From the NCBI GenBank assembly GCA_963668695.2, contig CAXXLQ010000004.1, positions 2,240,001 through 2,304,000 of the forward strand: a stretch of 64,000 bases of DNA. Direction: 5' to 3'. Source of the stretch: Vicinamibacteria bacterium (GTDB lineage: Bacteria; Acidobacteriota; Vicinamibacteria; Marinacidobacterales; Marinacidobacteraceae). The notes below the pieces were generated by a model. The model was not told where the DNA came from. It made no database searches and worked only from the letters and a program-made list of their open reading frames with translations. The translations under genes and the position numbers were made by a program. Shown piece after piece: positions 15,262-64,000 of this stretch; position 1 is the stretch's first letter; each line of letters opens with the position of its first letter.

Positions 15262-15516
15262 CAGCCTGTGGTGAAACCCAAGCGGCCCAGTTCTCCCGGT
15301 GGGGGCTCGAGCGGCGATCCATCCCGTCTGAACCATGTCGCTTCGCGCCGCTCATCGTTGCGTTTCGGTCGGAATACACCCGGGCCAGTTCTCCCGGTGG
15401 GGGCTCCTCCCTCACGCGCCTTGTCAGCCGGGCCCCCACCGGGAGAACTGGCCCCACCGGGAGAACTGGGCCTCGCCGCTCTCGGCGCTCACCCGGGTTC
15501 CACCACAGGCTGCTAG
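15258..15516. mobile_element. MITE-like element family A, copy 3 (four 18-bp modules)
   Basis: Begins at the pheS TAG (TTAG) and ends with CTAG 3 nt before the pheT ATG. Confidence 0.85.
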
Positions 15517-27193: not shown

Positions 27194-27442
27194 TTAACAG
27201 CCGGTGGTGAAACCCACGCGGGTTCCACCACCGGCTGCTAACAGCCTGTGGCAAGACCCACGCGGCGTTCGACGGGCGATGCATCCCGTCTGATCCGCCC
27301 CGCTTTGCGGGGCTCTGCGTTGCGCTTCGGTCGAAATACACCCGGTATTCCTCCCTCACGCGCCTTGTCAGCCGGACCCCCACCGGGAGAACTGGGCCTC
27401 GCCCGTCTCGGCGCTCACGTGGGTTTCACCACAGGCTGTTAA
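27194..27442. mobile_element. MITE-like element family A, copy 4 (about 40-bp TIR-only mini-element plus full element)
   Basis: TTAA-cagccggtggtgaaacccacgcgggttccaccaccggctg-CTAA-cagcctgtgg...caggctg-TTAA. Confidence 0.85.
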
Positions 27443-40738: not shown

Positions 40739-41047
40739 CCAGCAGCCTGTGGACAAAGTCACGCGGCCCAGTTTTCCCGGTGGGGGCTCGACCGGCGATG
40801 CATCCCGGCTGAACCGCGCCACATCGTGGCGCTCTGCGTTGCGCTTCGGTCGAAACACGCTCGGGCCAGTTCTCCCGGTGGGGGCTTCTCTCTCGCGCGC
40901 CTTGTCAGCCGGGCCCCCACCGGGAGAACTGGCCCCACCGGGAGAACTGGCCCCACCGGGAGAACTGGCCCCACCGGGAGAACTGGCCCCACCGGGAGAA
41001 CTGGGCCTCACCGCTCTCGGCACTCACGCCACTTTATCCACAGGCCG
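40739..41047. mobile_element. MITE-like element family A, copy 7, with 5x tandem 18-bp module
   Basis: cagcctgtggacaaagt...actttatccacaggccg; (ccccaccgggagaactgg)x5 at 40915-41004. Confidence 0.85.
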
Positions 41048-56706: not shown

Positions 56707-59013
56707 TCAGTTGTTGTTCGGGCGCCGGCGGCCGCTTGAACTGCTGCCACCCCGGCTCACCGCGGTGCTGCCACCGCCGCCGCCTGCGGCGCTGCTGCCG
56801 CCACCGCTGGCGCTGCTGCTGCCGCCACCGCTGGTGCTGCCGCCACCGCCGCCACCCCGGCTCGCGCCGCTCTGTCCGCTCCCCGCGAAGCGGGAGAATC
56901 CACCGGGACGACCCCGCGAGGCGCTGCTTGGCCGGCTACGCGAAGCCGCGCTCGGGCGGCTGCGCGAAGCTCCGCTCGGACGACTCCTCACGGCTCCGCT
57001 GCTCGGGCGGCTGCGGCTGGCCCCACTGCTGGGCTGGCTGCGGGAAGCTCCACTCGGGCGGCTCCGGCTGGCCCCACTGCTGGGTTGGCTGCGGGAGGCG
57101 CCACTTGGGCGGCTGCGGCTGGCCCCACTGCTGGGTTGGCTACGAGAGGCTCCGCTCGGACGATTCCGGACGGCCCCGCTGTTTGGGCGGCTACGGGGAG
57201 TGCCCGACGAGCCGGCGGAAGCAGCGCCGCTTCGCGGAGATGCGGGCCGGACCGCTGACGGTCTTCTCGTTCCTGTCTCACCCGTCCGTCCGGCCGCGCG
57301 CGGCCTGGGAGATGTCGCCGGCCGGTTACCGGCGGAGCCTTCCCGGCCGCGGGCAGCCTCTGGGCGCCCCGTCCGGCGTCCGGCTGTCGAGGGGCCGGCT
57401 GTCCCCCGGCCTTGAGCAGTGGCCCGGGACCGGTTCGCCTCGGCGCCGCGAGCGCTCCCGCTCCGTCCTGCCGCTTCGCGGGCCAGGGTGGCGCGGTCCC
57501 TTTCCGCTGCGTACGTCGACCGTGCGCTGCGCGCCCGCGCTGCGCTTGAGGGGATCGCCACGCGCTGCCCGCGCAGGGTGCTGCGATCGGCTCCCACCGC
57601 GGCGCGACCGGCGGCGGCCGCTGCTCGGGTGGTGGCGCCCCGCGAATTCGAGAGCCTGCGGTTCGTGGACTTGGCGGAGCGGATCATCGCAGTGACCCCC
57701 ACCGCGCGCTGCCGGAAACCCCTGTCCAGGATGGCTCCCCGGGACAGAACCTGAGCGTCTTCCAGGTTCCGCAGACTGGAGGCGGACAACCGGTTGCGGG
57801 AGGCCGGCTGGCCGATCACCTCCCGAGCGGTGAAACTCCAGGAACCCCGATCGGCGACGGACCCGCGGGGCACCGCCTTCCCAAGGATCGTTCCCCGCCG
57901 GACCCCGCGGCCGCCGTATTCCCGCTCGGGCCCTTCGTATCCAGAGTAGCCATACCCGGAGTAGCCATACCCGGAGTAGCCATACCCGTAGTAGTCGTAC
58001 ACGGGGTAGCCGTAGTAGTTCAGCGGAGACCAGCCGACCCAGTTGTAGCCATAGCTCCAGGAAACCCAGCCCGGACCCCATACCGAGCCCGGCAGCCAGT
58101 ACCAGCCGAGGGGACCGTGCCCCCACCTGCCGTAGTGATAAGGAGCCCATCCCCAGGGGTCGTAGGAGACCCAGGTCAGGCCGAACGGCGTGTGCGCCCA
58201 GCGTCCCTGCCGGTAGGGGGCCCAACCGGCGGAAACGGTCGGATACCAGAGCCATCCCAGATGGCCATCCTGCTGCCAGCGGCCGTGCCCGTCGAGGTCG
58301 TGGGCGTATTCCCGTACTTCCTCGGGAAGTTCGTCATAGTGAGTTTCCGCGGTGGTGACGAACCGCCGCTGGCGGTCCTCGGTCCAGGCGAAGAAGTTGT
58401 CGTTGCCCAGGTATTCCTCCGGGGAAGCCGGCGCGGCGCCTTCGAAAGCGATGGTCCGCTGACCGGCTCCGACCAGCACGGAGCCCCATTCGGTGGACAC
58501 TGTCGCAATGCCCGAGTACACGACGAACTGGACCGTCCGGCCATCTTCAAGCAGGTCCGTCCGGTACTCCCCCTCTCCCTGGGGGGAGAAGGTGCCGCCG
58601 GGGGTTTCCACAACGACCTCGGTGTCGCTGGCCATCCACACGATGAGGCTTCCGGTCCAGAATCCGAGCCGGTGCGGACTATCTCCTTCCACGTAGTCCA
58701 GCTTGGTTCCCTCGTCCATCCAGGCAGTGACCCCGCCCGCGAAGCGCAGTTCGACCTGGCCGGGTTCGCGCGTCCAGATGCGGTCTCCGGGAAGGAAGGG
58801 ACTGCCCCGCTCGGCCTCGTGAGCGCCGAAGTCGTCAGCCCGCTGATGCCAGACGTCGCCGTCGACGACGCTGAGATTCCCGTAGGCGTAGGAACGTCCG
58901 GTTTCCTCGTTGGCCTGCGCGAGCGCCGCCGAGGGCTGGCCCAGAGCAAGCAGCAGGCTCAGGGCGCCTGCGTGCCGGAGGATCTTGTTGCGCCTGTTCG
59001 CTCTTTCGTGCAT
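56707..59013 (-). CDS. FecR-domain / DUF6600-like secreted protein with low-complexity tail
   Basis: Signal peptide; GDRIWT..GQVELRF; WAPYRQGRW..WVSYDPWGWAPYHYGRW..WGPGWVSW; Arg/Ser/Gly repeats; AGGAGG RBS. Confidence 0.82.
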   Translation of the reverse strand: MHERANRRNKILRHAGALSLLLALGQPSAALAQANEETGRSYAYGNLSVVDGDVWHQRADDFGAHEAERGSPFLPGDRIWTREPGQVELRFAGGVTAWMDEGTKLDYVEGDSPHRLGFWTGSLIVWMASDTEVVVETPGGTFSPQGEGEYRTDLLEDGRTVQFVVYSGIATVSTEWGSVLVGAGQRTIAFEGAAPASPEEYLGNDNFFAWTEDRQRRFVTTAETHYDELPEEVREYAHDLDGHGRWQQDGHLGWLWYPTVSAGWAPYRQGRWAHTPFGLTWVSYDPWGWAPYHYGRWGHGPLGWYWLPGSVWGPGWVSWSYGYNWVGWSPLNYYGYPVYDYYGYGYSGYGYSGYGYSGYEGPEREYGGRGVRRGTILGKAVPRGSVADRGSWSFTAREVIGQPASRNRLSASSLRNLEDAQVLSRGAILDRGFRQRAVGVTAMIRSAKSTNRRLSNSRGATTRAAAAAGRAAVGADRSTLRGQRVAIPSSAARARSARSTYAAERDRATLAREAAGRSGSARGAEANRSRATAQGRGTAGPSTAGRRTGRPEAARGREGSAGNRPATSPRPRAAGRTGETGTRRPSAVRPASPRSGAASAGSSGTPRSRPNSGAVRNRPSGASRSQPSSGASRSRPSGASRSQPSSGASRSRPSGASRSQPSSGASRSRPSSGAVRSRPSGASRSRPSAASRSRPSSASRGRPGGFSRFAGSGQSGASRGGGGGGSTSGGGSSSASGGGSSAAGGGGGSTAVSRGGSSSSGRRRPNNN

Positions 59014-59047
59014 GGGCCACCTCCTGGAAGGCTGGCGTCTCAGGTGT

Positions 59048-59064
59048 CGCAATCCCTATGCCAG
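59048..59064 (-). promoter_or_regulatory. Sigma-54 -24/-12 promoter candidate
   Basis: CTGGCATAGGGATTGCG, 34 nt upstream of ATG 59013. Confidence 0.7.
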
Positions 59065-59574: not shown

Positions 59575-59692
59575 GGACTCGCCACCGTTGCAATCGGGAA
59601 CTAGGGGAGGCGGAAGGCCCCCGCGAGAGAGACTAATCGAGAGACCCCGGTCACGCCAATTGCTTGTTCGCGGTAGCGGGACGGCCGCATCC

Positions 59693-59879
59693 TTAACAGC
59701 CTGTGGTGGAACCCGGGTGAGCGCCGAGAGCGGTGAGGCGCCCGGCTGACAAGGCGCGTGAGGGAGGAATACCAGGTGTATCGCGACCGAAACGCAACGC
59801 AGAACGGAGCGAAGCGGAGTGGTTCAGCCGGGATGCATCGCCGCTCGAACGCCGCCTGGGTTCCACCACAGGCTGTTTA
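59693..59879. mobile_element. MITE-like element family A, copy 12
   Basis: TTAA-cagcctgtggtggaaccc...gggttccaccacaggctg-TTTA, 5 nt from the glpX stop. Confidence 0.85.
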
Positions 59880-59880
59880 C

Positions 59881-60864
59881 TCAGGCGCGCCGGCGCCGCG
59901 TGATCCTGGACAACTCGGGAGGGTCATTCGTGATCTGCAGCGTCTGGGTTTCGATTCCGTCCGCGTCAAGCCGGACGCCCGCGACCAGGGGGCCGTCGGT
60001 GACCCCGGCGGCGCAAAAGATCAGGCTCCTGCCAGGCGCCAGTTCCGTGGTGGTGAGTACGCGGCCCGGTTCCTCGACTCCCGTTTCTCGAAGTCGCTGC
60101 CTCTCGGCTTCGTTTCTGACGAGCAGCCTCCCCAGCATCCCGCCGCCGAGGCAGCGCAGGGCGGCGGCCGCGATCACCCCCTCCGGAGCGCCTCCGGACC
60201 CCATGGCCGCCTGGATTCCTGAACCCGGCGTCGCGCTCAGGATGCCGGCTGAGAGATCGCCGTCCCCGATGAGGCGGACACGGGCGCCGCTACGCCGCAG
60301 TCCGGCGATCAGGCCTTCGTGCCGGGACCGGTCGAGGACAACGACCGTGATCTCGCTCGCTGAACAGCCCTCGGCTTCGGCGATCGCCTGGACGTTCCGC
60401 TCTGGCGGGTGTTCGAGCCGGATCTCGCTGCCGAGCAGGTTCCGACTGGCCGCGCCCACCATGATCTTCTCCATGTAGATGTCGGGCGCGGTAAGCAGTC
60501 CGCCGCGCTCGGACCCGGCCAGCACCGAAATTGCCCCAGGCCCCCCGGTGGCGCACAGGTTCGTGCCCTCGAGCGGATCCACCGCAATGTCCAACTGCGG
60601 GGTGTCCTCGTCGCCGGCGCCGAACTCCTCTCCGCTCCACAGCATGGGAGCCTTGTCGCGTTCCCCTTCGCCGATGACCACCCGTCCGCGCACCGGGGCG
60701 GTATCCAGAATCCGGCGCATGGCGGAAACTGCCACCTGGTCCGAGTGGTGACGGTCTCCCTGTCCGATCGTGCGTGCGCAGGCGATGGCCGCCTCCTCGA
60801 CGGTGCGGATGAGGTAGGGGGCTACACCCCGGATTGGGATCTCGCCCGCTGCCTTCGTGCTCAA
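59881..60864 (-). CDS. glpX: Class II fructose-1,6-bisphosphatase
   Basis: VVIGEGERDKAPML, DIAVDPLEGT, APDIYMEK, LDRSRH, GGAPEGVIAAAA, GVTDG. Confidence 0.94.
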   Translation of the reverse strand: MSTKAAGEIPIRGVAPYLIRTVEEAAIACARTIGQGDRHHSDQVAVSAMRRILDTAPVRGRVVIGEGERDKAPMLWSGEEFGAGDEDTPQLDIAVDPLEGTNLCATGGPGAISVLAGSERGGLLTAPDIYMEKIMVGAASRNLLGSEIRLEHPPERNVQAIAEAEGCSASEITVVVLDRSRHEGLIAGLRRSGARVRLIGDGDLSAGILSATPGSGIQAAMGSGGAPEGVIAAAALRCLGGGMLGRLLVRNEAERQRLRETGVEEPGRVLTTTELAPGRSLIFCAAGVTDGPLVAGVRLDADGIETQTLQITNDPPELSRITRRRRA

Positions 60865-62186: not shown

Positions 62187-63812
62187 TCAGATCCCGTTGG
62201 CGAGGGCGGCGGTCGCCGCTTCCGCCTCCGCCTTGCGTTTGCTGCCGCCGACTCCTCTGCCCAGCGCGCGCTGGCCGGCCAGGACTTCCATCACGTACGT
62301 CTTGTCGTGCTCCGGGCCACTCTCAGAGATGAGCCGGTAGACGGGTAGGCGTCCCTCCCTCTTCACGAGTGCCTCCTGGAGTGCCCCCTTCGGGTTGTCC
62401 GACGAGGCGGAGATCGGGGCTGCCTGTTTCTCGCTGATTTCGCGCTCGGAGCCGGAAGCCGATCCACTCCTCGTTCGGCTGCGCCTTCGATTGGCCTGCG
62501 TTTCGAGGTGTGCGAGCACCAGGCGCGCCGCATCCTTTTCGGCCTCCTTGAGACCGCTGCCGACTCCGGTTTCGACCAGTCCGTCGGCCAGCCGCAGGGT
62601 CACCGAGACCCTCCCGTCGCCCCCCGCGCTCCTGGGCCCGCGTTTCACTTCGTACCGAGGAGCTTCCTTGCCGGCCTGCGCGAGACGATTCTGGAGAAGC
62701 GTCTTCGGGTCCAGCAGTTCCAGGTCGGGGTTCTGAAGCTCTTCCAGGGCCTCTGCGAATGGCCGGCCGAGGGCTCGCCGGGCCGCTTTCAGGCTGCCGT
62801 CCACATAGAGCGCCCCCATGACCGCTTCTGCGGTCGCGACGGCTTCATCGCCGCCTCCGAGCGACCAGTGCCGACTCAATGTCCGGGTGAAGTCGGGGCT
62901 TTGGAACCTCATTCTGGCGAGGGTCATACGCCCTTCGTCCCACTCGGGGAAGTCGCTGTGGAGGACTTCCGCGAGCACCAGATGCATGACGTCGCGCCCC
63001 AGAAAGCGCAGCGCCTGCCGATTCGGAGTTCCGGCGGCAACCCCTCGGCCGCGTGAGCGCGGGGCCGGGCTGCGGCGTCTTCTCATTCGCCGCCTCTTGC
63101 CACGGCGACCCGCGGATTCGATGGCCCGGTTCGGGCCGTCTGCGTCGAGCGCCGCCAGCAGGATTCCGGGACGGGAAAAGGTGTACCCGAGCGCGCGCTC
63201 GACTCCCGTGCGAAGAAAGGCAGTGCGGCGGACGATCCGGACGCTGATCCGCCCCAGGGAGCGGAACGCTCCAGCCCCTCGACGCATCCATCCCGGAACA
63301 CCTTCCGGAGGCCTCAGCCGAAGCCTCTCCAGCTTTGTCCTGAACGCGGCGGCCAAGACACCTCGGGCGGCGGGCATGCCGCCGTCGAGATAAGCAGCCC
63401 CCAAAACGGCTTCAAAGACATTCGCCAGGATGCGATCCGAAGATCGCACCTCCTCGCCGGCGCTCCGCCCGCGGCCGACGCGAATTCCCTCGTCCAGCGA
63501 GAGGGTTCGGGCCGCCGAGGCGAGCGAGTGGTTGCTCACCAGCTCGGATTTGGTCTCCTGACGCCGTTGCCCGTCCCAATTCGGGCGCTGAAAGTGCATC
63601 GCCTCCGTGACGACGAGTCCAAGCGCGGCGTCTCCGACGAACTCCAGCCGTTCGTAGTCGGGCACCTCGTGATCATTTCGGTAGGAGCCGTGGGTCAGGG
63701 CCTCCTCCAGAAGGTCGATGTTCCGGAAGCGGTACCCGAGACCCCGGGCGAACTCCAGCACCGGACGATGGTCTGATGCCGGAGAGCGTCTTCGTCGTCT
63801 GCTTCGGGCCAT
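62187..63812 (-). CDS. rnc: Ribonuclease III with duplicated RNase III domain and two dsRBDs
   Basis: ALTHGS..YERLEFVGDA..EAVLGAAYLDGG; second LGYTF..QALRFLGRD..DEGRMT..EAVMGALYVDG; DPKTLLQ and NPKGALQE dsRBDs. Confidence 0.88.
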   Translation of the reverse strand: MARSRRRRRSPASDHRPVLEFARGLGYRFRNIDLLEEALTHGSYRNDHEVPDYERLEFVGDAALGLVVTEAMHFQRPNWDGQRRQETKSELVSNHSLASAARTLSLDEGIRVGRGRSAGEEVRSSDRILANVFEAVLGAAYLDGGMPAARGVLAAAFRTKLERLRLRPPEGVPGWMRRGAGAFRSLGRISVRIVRRTAFLRTGVERALGYTFSRPGILLAALDADGPNRAIESAGRRGKRRRMRRRRSPAPRSRGRGVAAGTPNRQALRFLGRDVMHLVLAEVLHSDFPEWDEGRMTLARMRFQSPDFTRTLSRHWSLGGGDEAVATAEAVMGALYVDGSLKAARRALGRPFAEALEELQNPDLELLDPKTLLQNRLAQAGKEAPRYEVKRGPRSAGGDGRVSVTLRLADGLVETGVGSGLKEAEKDAARLVLAHLETQANRRRSRTRSGSASGSEREISEKQAAPISASSDNPKGALQEALVKREGRLPVYRLISESGPEHDKTYVMEVLAGQRALGRGVGGSKRKAEAEAATAALANGI

Positions 63813-63813
63813 C

Positions 63814-64000
63814 TCAGTCCACCCGTATGAGAACCATCGTCAGATCGTCCGTGTGGGCCTCGGCCCCGGTGAAGTGCTGGACCGCGTCTTCCACGTTCCG
63901 TTGCAGGGCCGCCGGTGGCAGTGCTGCACCGTCTTCCAGGAGCCGCATGAGCCTTTCCTCCCCAAACATGTCGGATTCGGCGTTCATCGCTTCGGAGACG
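63814..64000 (-). CDS. SpoIIE/PP2C-type phosphatase, 3' end (partial)
   Basis: Manual translation VSEAMNAESDMFGEERL...FTGAEAHTDDLTMVLIRVD. Confidence 0.85.
   Translation of the reverse strand, partial: VSEAMNAESDMFGEERLMRLLEDGAALPPAALQRNVEDAVQHFTGAEAHTDDLTMVLIRVD

Follow-up and report, generated by a model that had tools for sequence, protein, structure and literature searches.

Introduction

Tandem ribonuclease III (RNase III) domains, or RIIIDs, are described only for Drosha, Dicer and RNC1 in the passages of PMC3867540 that deal with them. A passage of PMC4571572 regards the Dicer arrangement, in which a helicase is fused to two RNase III domains, as unique to eukaryotes, and according to a passage of PMC5303251 bacteria and archaea have no orthologue of Dicer. 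Pairs made of one active and one inactive domain have also been described: the trypanosome editing endonucleases are thought to act as active/inactive RIIID pairs that cut the mRNA strand only (PMC9508840, PMC3867540), and double-stranded RNA (dsRNA) can be nicked by E. coli RNase III heterodimers engineered to have a single functional subunit (PMC3867540, citing Meng & Nicholson 2008 and Conrad et al. 2002). The full-text literature searched, with most subscription journals outside its scope, yielded no bacterial RNase III described as tandem or as asymmetric by nature. The present analysis concerns a bacterial gene of this kind, an open reading frame of 541 codons with an ATG start at positions 62187–63812, minus strand, of a 64,000-nucleotide stretch of the genome of a Vicinamibacteria bacterium (Marinacidobacteraceae; contig CAXXLQ010000004.1, positions 2,240,001 to 2,304,000). 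The whole of this stretch is called the window, and its numbering is used throughout.

The gene encodes two RIIIDs, designated A and B, followed by two dsRNA-binding domains (dsRBDs). On balance, the evidence favours the view that the protein serves an uncultured Acidobacteriota family as its housekeeping RNase III, recast as a single chain with one catalytic centre. The metal-ligand positions, the predicted fold, the selection acting on domain B and the occurrence of the gene are presented below, and the competing explanations are weighed in the Discussion.

Results

Domain content of the tandem protein

A reading of the DNA letters alone, here called the sequence-only reading, had described the open reading frame as about twice the length of a normal Rnc, with two RIIIDs and two dsRBDs. 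Searches with Pfam and TIGR02191 confirmed this content in the order RIIID-A, RIIID-B, dsRBD1, dsRBD2, and all of the quoted motifs were found: ERLEFVGD (from residue 54) and ANVFEA (130) in domain A, QALRFLGR (266) and ATAEA (326) in domain B, and the Arg-rich motifs RSRRRRRS (3), RRGKRRRMRRRRS (236) and RRRSRTRS (442). Arginine makes up 14.6% of the residues of the protein.

Domain B was matched by PF00636 at residues 266–318 (29.3 bits, cut-off 27, E 1.6e-6), which covers the first half of the profile only; searched alone against PF14622 it scored 26.4 bits, under the cut-off of 35. The TIGR02191 model scored 238.1 bits against an equivalog cut-off of 166.25, summed across three stretches of the protein, the second of which (63.8 bits, E 1.3e-17, model positions 31–217) corresponds to domain B and dsRBD1. 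The two RIIIDs also aligned directly with each other by BLASTP, at 30% identity over 116 amino acids (aa) with an E value of 5e-11. At E values up to 1, Pfam returned RIIID and dsRBD families alone: no PAZ, helicase, platform or Drosha central domain was detected, and zinc-finger and PUF families were absent as well. Scores for the remaining domains are given in Table 1.

Metal-ligand positions

The metal ligands of Aquifex RNase III are E40, D44, D107 and E110, and E110 (E. coli E117) bridges both Mg2+ ions and is functionally essential, according to passages of PMC3867540. The ligand spacings of the Aquifex enzyme (4 and 3 residues) fit E57/D61/N131/E134 in domain A and R269/R273/A326/E329 in domain B. 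Conservation at these positions was read from two alignments. The family alignment held 33 sequences, namely the query and 32 of the 72 clusters described below, picked to span the identity range (50–89% identical to the query). The canonical alignment held 132 enzymes, made up of 127 near-neighbour representatives of 200–300 aa and five enzymes from sister families.

In domain A, E54, E57, D61, N131 and E134 are invariant in the 33 family members, and counterparts of E57 and D61 are conserved in all 132 canonical enzymes. Compared with the set of four acidic ligands, domain A has the full set with Asn at the third position, and domain B does not have it. The sequence-only reading had remarked on the replacement of the usual Asp by Asn in domain A. 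The replacement itself is real, but it is neither unusual nor a mark of impairment, as the N131 column of the canonical enzymes reads Asp in 84 and Asn in 31, and all five sister-family enzymes read ANALEA and so have Asn at this column. Judging from these alignments, Asn at the third ligand position is ancestral in the order, being present in single-domain enzymes. Since Asn is common among canonical enzymes, including all five of the sister families, N131 would be compatible with activity of domain A.

In domain B, E329 is retained at the fourth ligand position and the other three ligands are lost. The earlier statement that both signature acids of this domain had become Arg was upheld, with R269 and R273 invariant in the 33 members. 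The register is supported by HMMER, which placed QALRFLGRD of domain B opposite QRMEFLGDS of Drosha RIIIDb and AEAVMGALY opposite FEALIGAVY, and BLASTP of domain B against domain A gave the same register as the Drosha alignment. Invariance in domain B extends to A267, F270, L271, G272, D274, E293 and E329, and A326 is variable. Because two of the ligands are now cations and a third is lost, Mg2+ binding and cutting by domain B would be very unlikely.

The position of E. coli E65 is occupied by Gly81, in a variable column, in domain A versus the invariant E293, within WDEGRMTLARMR, in domain B. The acidic residue at this position (Aquifex E64, E. coli E65) is reported from early Aquifex structures (Blaszczyk et al. 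2001) to lie near the active site of the partner subunit, and action across the subunit boundary would account for its retention in domain B and its loss from domain A. The literature passages found gave no support for this, and it is mentioned as a lead only.

Predicted fold and selection on domain B

The full-length AlphaFold model, built on the 33-sequence alignment, had a mean predicted local distance difference test score (pLDDT) of 77.8 and a predicted template modelling score (pTM) of 0.61. Its disordered stretches, residues 1–12, 226–261 and 443–470, are the three Arg-rich segments. The best Foldseek and VIA matches of this model were single Drosha and Dicer chains, covering residues ~4–440, and its dsRBD1 superposes on the Drosha/Dicer dsRBD. 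A core model of residues 13–365, built on 19 sequences, reached a pTM of 0.81. Superposition of the core model gave Z 27.5 with human Drosha (5b16_A; 4.1 Å over 306 residues), Z 27.0 with mouse Dicer in the dicing state (7zpi_A; 2.9 Å over 282 residues), Z 26.4 with Arabidopsis DCL3 (7vg2_A; 2.6 Å over 272 residues) and Z 21.3 with Giardia Dicer (2ffl_D; 3.8 Å over 285 residues). Single-RIIID chains gave Z values of at most 20.6 over 136–150 residues.

These models predict that domain B folds as an RIIID and sits against domain A in the partner position, forming an intramolecular pseudo-dimer as in Drosha and Dicer. The sequence-only reading had anticipated both the fold and the pseudo-dimer, and in silico the two were borne out by the domain search, the core model and the superposition on single Dicer and Drosha chains. 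The predicted A:B packing is consistent with a monomeric enzyme and is not proof of one. A homodimer prediction with two copies of the core (13–365), run without controls, returned a score of 0.00, which weighs neither for nor against dimerisation.

Selection was estimated as the ratio of nonsynonymous to synonymous substitution rates (dN/dS) by the Nei-Gojobori method for seven within-genus pairs, and the ranges given here come from those pairs, five or six in number, whose dS was 0.2 or more. Purifying selection acts on domain B as strongly as on domain A: dN/dS was 0.06–0.16 for the domain B core and 0.05–0.16 for domain A. It was 0.02–0.15 for dsRBD2, 0.15–0.59 for the insert in domain B and 0.48–1.10 for the linker at residues 441–471. 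The closest pair (dS ~0.1) gave values that were noisier and higher in every segment. Invariant columns numbered 29 of 100 in the domain B core (263–362) and 58 of 151 in domain A, and there were none in the linkers and the insert.

Occurrence of the tandem gene and absence of a second RNase III

A protein search restricted to 297–947 aa returned 72 clusters at E values of at most 7.4e-128, of which 69 are 500–674 aa long. The few clusters with a named source are assigned to Acidobacteria or Acidobacteriota bacterium. The next matches fall to E 5.6e-28 and are canonical-sized enzymes of ~300–326 aa. In an exhaustive 50%-identity library, P0064 and P0072 were the only near-full-length relatives, and the tandem family is thus narrow.

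The sequence-only reading had left two points to be settled, namely how widely the architecture is distributed and whether a second, canonical rnc exists. With domain B as the query, a strong match (E at most 3.2e-32, in uninterrupted frames of at least 535 aa) was obtained in 24 of 24 family genomes, which span seven genera. The same query gave weak matches in 5 of 16 genomes of two sister families (E 1.4e-6 to 3.8e-4), in frames of 255–282 aa that are ordinary rnc genes, and five weak matches in 400 further genomes of the phylum (E 1.9e-11 to 9.0e-9). The PF14622 search found exactly one RIIID match per genome (E at most 0.001) in 28 of 28 family genomes, in each case domain A of the tandem gene, and the genome of the window holds one TIGR02191 locus. 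No canonical rnc or Mini-III was found beside the tandem gene across the 28 family genomes, and the sister families retain canonical rnc. The tandem protein is the only RNase III of the family and is fixed family-wide. The genome of the window is a metagenome-assembled genome (MAG), 91.7% complete with 9.3% contamination, and several of the 28 family genomes are single contigs.

A long-frame match from the 400 phylum genomes, in genome G116, was inspected as a further candidate and rejected, as it proved to be a canonical RIIID and dsRBD with an N-terminal extension. Canonical RNase III enzymes of ~310–330 aa occur in this and other related Acidobacteriota (locus L110, G116:C1:2103000-2108000; P0077–P0086; some Vicinamibacterales). 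The precomputed Pfam annotation assigns their N-terminal extension to PF09413; in the tandem family this extension is absent and an Arg-rich tail takes its place.

Evolutionary origin and other tandem proteins

A tree of 95 RIIID sequences and 141 columns was computed with a quick search. The domain A sequences of the family form one clade (support by the Shimodaira–Hasegawa-like approximate likelihood ratio test, SH-aLRT, 99) and the domain B sequences another (SH-aLRT 100, stem length 1.0). Internal branching of the two clades is broadly parallel, and the free tree attaches both by separate long stems to an unresolved backbone. A tree constrained to unite A and B was 39.5 log-likelihood units better than the free search and was not rejected by the approximately unbiased (AU) test (p-AU 0.888). 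Duplication within this lineage is the best-fitting and the likely history of A and B, although long-branch attraction may contribute. Because the best tree unites the A and B domains of the family, a local duplication and an origin apart from Drosha and Dicer are suggested; the tandem arrangement probably arose independently of the eukaryotic enzymes, on a tree that held no eukaryotic sequences.

Other tandem proteins were seen among metagenomic sequences. P0104, P0111, P0165, P0248–P0252, P0115, P0103 and P0105 have two or three RIIIDs per chain, several of them with a basic residue replacing a metal ligand in the degenerate domain. P0104, P0111 and P0165 (437–439 aa) have the order RIIID-RIIID-dsRBD, and their second domain is degenerate, reading ARLKFLGH, or GRLAFLGD/GRLAFVGA with Lys for the essential Glu (VKAL). 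P0103 (480 aa) has the order RIIID-dsRBD-RIIID-dsRBD with both domains intact, and in P0115 (358 aa) the dead RIIID precedes a live one, which is followed by a dsRBD. In the tree, one clade (SH-aLRT 97) unites both domains of P0104, P0111 and P0165, and the P0103 domains are sisters to each other (SH-aLRT 99).

The P0111 group comprises eight clusters, all on metagenome contigs of at most 44 kb that have no taxon names, and its nearest neighbours are bacterial canonical enzymes. A contig scan with the P0111/P0165/P0104 alignment was unspecific, recovering ordinary rnc across bacteria, and all 80 loci kept had matches of canonical length. A protein atlas queried with P0104 and P0001 gave only clusters of canonical bacterial RNase III, mostly from Acidobacteriota, and no tandem cluster. 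Half-dead tandem RNase IIIs appear, from their placement in the tree, to have evolved more than once outside eukaryotes. Among the tandem proteins, only the Marinacidobacteraceae family is tied to genomes.

Feature coordinates and neighbouring genes

Table 1 Features of the tandem RNase III gene and its upstream neighbour, in window coordinates.
Feature	Coordinates	Strand	Evidence and remarks
Whole coding sequence, tandem RNase III (541 aa + stop)	62187..63812	-	Open reading frame; N-terminus MARxRRRRR conserved among orthologues
Arg-rich N-terminal tail, residues 1-14, predicted disordered	63771..63812	-	Arg run in most of 33 aligned sequences; 0 invariant columns
RIIID-A, residues 15-165, catalytically intact nuclease domain (from sequence)	63318..63770	-	Residues 32-154: PF14622 99 bits (cut-off 35), PF00636 67.6 bits (cut-off 27); 58/151 columns invariant
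ERLEFVGD signature of domain A (E54, E57, D61)	63630..63653	-	Invariant in 33 family members
N131-V-F-E134, domain A, third and fourth metal-ligand positions	63411..63422	-	N131, E134 invariant in family
Inter-domain linker, residues 166-200, predicted single long helix (H175-197)	63213..63317	-	0/35 columns invariant
RIIID-B, residues 201-362, conserved pseudo-nuclease domain (predicted)	62727..63212	-	PF00636, TIGR02191; pLDDT 81-95 outside insert
Arg/Gly/Pro-rich insert within RIIID-B, residues 226-262, predicted disordered	63027..63137	-	pLDDT <50
Degenerate signature QALRFLGR of domain B; R269, R273 at Aquifex E40, D44 positions	62994..63017	-	HMMER alignments
A326-T-A-E329, domain B; third ligand lost, fourth (Glu) kept	62826..62837	-	Alignment of 33; Drosha register
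dsRBD1, residues 367-440; beta1-beta2 loop without GPxH; K422, K426 invariant	62493..62714	-	PF00035 34 bits (~370-437)
Arg/Ser-rich disordered linker, residues 441-471	62400..62492	-	pLDDT <50
dsRBD2, residues 472-541, canonical, with GPEH and SKRKAE	62190..62399	-	PF00035 56 bits (474-539)
Upstream HAMP-SpoIIE (PP2C-type) phosphatase gene, 3' end	63814..64000	-	TGA-G-ATG: stop 1 nt before rnc ATG

Coordinates of the features are collected in Table 1. The insert in RIIID-B differs among orthologues in length and sequence and retains its Arg richness. Of the two dsRBDs, dsRBD2 aligns with the dsRBDs of M. tuberculosis and E. coli RNase III, and dsRBD1 retains the helix-1 residues, with a beta1-beta2 loop that is variable and modelled at low confidence. 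In three family members a third dsRBD, resembling dsRBD2, is inserted in the 441–471 linker. Because these members carry an extra dsRBD2-like copy, the C-terminal part of the protein seems to be still evolving by duplication. In P0053–P0055 and locus L025 (genome G022), all of one genus, the third dsRBD is a near-copy of dsRBD2, the Arg/Gly-rich inserts are much longer and the proteins reach 657–674 aa.

The gene lies in a run of housekeeping genes on the minus strand, in the order valS, a DivIC/FtsB-like gene, a HAMP-SpoIIE phosphatase gene (locus L029, 315–2255, minus strand), rnc, an acyl-CoA dehydrogenase gene and glpX. A HAMP-SpoIIE phosphatase gene also lies directly upstream of the canonical rnc in G116, which belongs to another family of the class. 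Because the phosphatase-rnc order is common to both, the tandem gene looks like the positional orthologue of an ordinary rnc. No sign of a defence island or mobile element was seen in the surroundings of the gene. A fusion of rnc with the phosphatase, raised by upstream frames of 739–1208 aa in some relatives, was considered and dismissed, as the extra residues are an out-of-frame translation rich in Arg, Pro and Gly.

In one study, four metatranscriptome libraries yielded contigs that match parts of the gene at 95% identity or above and a depth of 2–4, and two of these contigs bridge the phosphatase-rnc junction. The contigs are compatible with transcription of the tandem gene, possibly jointly with the phosphatase gene; carry-over of DNA into the libraries is possible, and the stretches without coverage are uninformative.

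Hairpin repeats in the window

The window is rich in elements that resemble repetitive extragenic palindromic (REP) elements or miniature inverted-repeat transposable elements (MITEs). Its direct repeats fall into 38 families, among which D4 counts 21 copies. The palindromic repeats, whose core is CAGCCKGTGGTGRAACCC, are spread across 3408–59877, for example at 27194–27235 and 59680–59890. On the coding strand of the gene cluster, the composite copy at 59680–59890 forms a long hairpin that ends in a stem of ~20 bp (minimum free energy -111.9 kcal/mol, z -7.6).

A link between the tandem RNase III and these 3' hairpin repeats had been floated in the sequence-only reading as speculation, and the distribution of the repeat did not sustain it. 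With an 18-nt core and one mismatch allowed, 747 copies were counted in the genome of the window (reversed-pattern control, 0). The core was present in 15 of 15 genomes of the same genus at 3 to 464 copies. Outside the genus, 1 of 9 family genomes had it (2 copies), and in the sister families it was seen in 0 of 16. In its simple form the link was rejected, as the repeat is nearly confined to one genus and the enzyme is found in all seven genera; repeats of another kind may exist in the other genera. Because of that presence in all seven genera, the tandem enzyme predates the repeat family and is independent of it. Such hairpins are plausible substrates for any RNase III, and their distribution gives a specific link no support.

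Tandem 18-nt units, CCCCACCGGGAGAACTGG, at 40915–41030 and 15427–15483 adjoin palindromic repeats and are apparently modules of the same composite elements. The window also encodes, at 56707–59052 on the minus strand, a DUF6600 protein of 781 aa whose long C-terminal tail, of low complexity, is made of SGASRSRP-type repeats (27/51-nt DNA repeats, family D7), with a poly-Gly/Ser end.

Discussion

Read as a single-chain enzyme with one catalytic centre, the tandem protein would work as follows. Domains A and B would pack within one polypeptide to form a dsRNA-binding valley like that of the canonical Rnc homodimer or the Drosha/Dicer pseudo-dimer. Double-stranded RNA would be bound in this A:B valley with the aid of dsRBD1, dsRBD2 and the Arg-rich tails, and one strand would be hydrolysed at the domain A site by the usual two-metal mechanism. 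The opposite strand would face R269, R273 and E329 and would be held there uncut, with the R269/R273 pair perhaps clamping its phosphate. One strand would be cut per binding event, which would leave a nick, or a staggered double cut after release and rebinding in the opposite orientation, and cleavage of asymmetric substrates could be strand-specific. The dead site, the two dsRBDs and the three disordered Arg-rich segments would together hold and orient the RNA. In this scheme, the inactivity of domain B, the monomeric action, the cleavage of a single strand and the arginine clamp on the phosphate of the uncut strand are features that we infer.

Several considerations weigh against this reading. 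Every functional statement is a prediction. AlphaFold was trained on RNase III dimers, Dicer and Drosha and may pair two RIIIDs by habit, and the monomer model leaves room for domain-swapped or A:A'/B:B' dimers. The sequence evidence for the second half of domain B consists of the TIGR02191 stretch, taken together with the model, since Pfam covers the first half only. A second RNase III might be unassembled in the MAG; yet 28 of 28 relatives, several of them single-contig genomes, are without one. Finally, an enzyme with one site that is the sole RNase III of its lineage must process rRNA precursors that are normally cut on both strands, and two sequential events or other nucleases would therefore be required.

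A sole RNase III is expected to double-cut pre-rRNA stems, and this favours a dimer of tandems, in which A:A' would make an ordinary two-site centre with staggered double cuts and the B domains, alone or as B:B', would form a silent dsRNA-binding module that alters or widens substrate choice. Such a dimer also agrees with the description of canonical RIIIDs as obligate homodimers in passages of PMC3867540, and domain A retains the signature Phe (F58) and all of the catalytic residues. However, both AlphaFold models seat domain B, and not a second domain A, on the dimer face of A (core pTM 0.81), F270, L271 and G272 of the signature helix are invariant in domain B as expected for the partner position, and the linker of just ~35 residues, predicted to be one helix, counts against it as well. 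A dimer of tandems is considered unlikely.

Far less credit is given to the idea that neither domain cuts and that the protein is a non-catalytic dsRNA-binding protein, an RNA chaperone or protector like plant RNC1. Its attractions are the degeneracy of domain B, the Asn at one ligand position of domain A with G81 at the E. coli E65 position, and the precedent that RNC1 offers for tandem silent RIIIDs, as passages of PMC3867540 describe it. These are set against the invariance of E54, E57, D61 and E134 of domain A in the 33 members and the occurrence of Asn at the third ligand position in 31 of the 132 canonical sequences, among them all five from the sister families, which are single-domain enzymes; moreover, 28 of 28 genomes have no other RNase III, and the lineage would have no such activity if the protein were non-catalytic. 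The chance of an artefact, whether an assembly chimera or two adjacent rnc genes fused by a sequencing error, is negligible. The estimated contamination of the MAG speaks for it, but the frame is uninterrupted (535–582 aa or longer, with no internal stops) in 24 of 24 genomes by domain B and 28 of 28 by domain A. An assembly chimera, which the sequence-only reading had named as something that would overturn it, is not the case: the frame was uninterrupted in every family genome searched, and a chimera is excluded because several family genomes with the gene are single contigs. Purifying selection on domain B and 72 independent clusters from several sources likewise refute an artefact.

A bolder form of the single-chain reading can be offered tentatively. 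It would hold that a natural monomeric strand-selective nickase has replaced canonical RNase III across the family, that the dead domain is no relic but a selected substrate-orienting module whose two invariant arginines take the place of the Mg2+ ions and clamp the phosphate of the spared strand, that the same solution, often with a basic residue in the former metal site, was reached independently in at least two further uncultured lineages, and that bacteria converged in this way on the Drosha/Dicer body plan. If this were true, the nickase could cut one defined strand of an asymmetric duplex, for instance one formed by an mRNA and a small or antisense RNA, or cut a hairpin on one arm.

That the only RNase III of a whole bacterial family is a single-chain predicted pseudo-dimer with one live and one dead site would surprise specialists. 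If the enzyme nicks, it would illustrate a route by which duplication within a bacterial rnc gene can give rise to the Drosha/Dicer body plan, it would provide a natural test of the effects of a one-site RNase III on rRNA and mRNA processing in vivo, and it would be a compact monomeric strand-specific dsRNA nickase and a possible reagent. It also presents a case of a pseudo-enzyme, a dead catalytic domain under strong selection as the partner of its active paralogue.

Compared with Drosha and Dicer, the tandem enzyme has the same RIIID-RIIID-dsRBD order in one chain, and its predicted pseudo-dimer superposes over 272–306 residues at 2.6–4.1 Å. Domain B further resembles Drosha RIIIDb in having Gln at the first signature position. 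In contrast, both sites of Drosha and Dicer are active and one is apparently dead here; the tandem enzyme has no PAZ, helicase or platform domain as in Dicer and no central or P-rich/RS domain as in Drosha, has a second dsRBD and Arg-rich tails, and is bacterial and an rnc by position. Plant chloroplast RNC1 likewise has tandem RIIIDs in one chain and has lost catalytic residues (passages of PMC3867540), but both of its domains are silent, whereas domain A of the tandem enzyme keeps the catalytic set. The other metagenomic tandem proteins also have two RIIIDs per chain, and in P0104, P0111, P0165 and P0115 the ligands of one domain are lost, often to basic residues. They differ in stemming from separate duplications and in their dsRBDs, of which there is a single one or one behind every RIIID; P0115 also has its dead domain in front.

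The trypanosome endonucleases KREN1-3 and their non-catalytic RNase III partners, as far as passages on them describe, pair a competent RIIID with a degenerate one, a pairing that is predicted in the tandem enzyme. They are separate polypeptides in a large complex, with zinc-finger and PUF domains, whereas the tandem enzyme joins both RIIIDs in a single chain and has two dsRBDs. The engineered E. coli heterodimers, in the account given of them, have one functional site per RIIID dimer; they are two-chain laboratory constructs with Ala or Lys point mutations, unlike the tandem enzyme, which is natural, fixed and single-chain and has Arg in the putative dead site. Canonical class 1 Rnc has one RIIID and one dsRBD in ~220–250 aa and acts as a homodimer, whereas the tandem chain has two of each in 541 aa and, according to the model, would not require a homodimer to form the valley. 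Domain A and dsRBD2 are nevertheless 30–34% identical to the M. tuberculosis, E. coli and T. maritima enzymes, and the gene takes the genomic position that a canonical rnc has in relatives. The Drosha and Dicer cores are its closest known counterparts in fold and domain order, the trypanosome pairs and the engineered E. coli heterodimers in logic, and bacterial rnc in descent and position.

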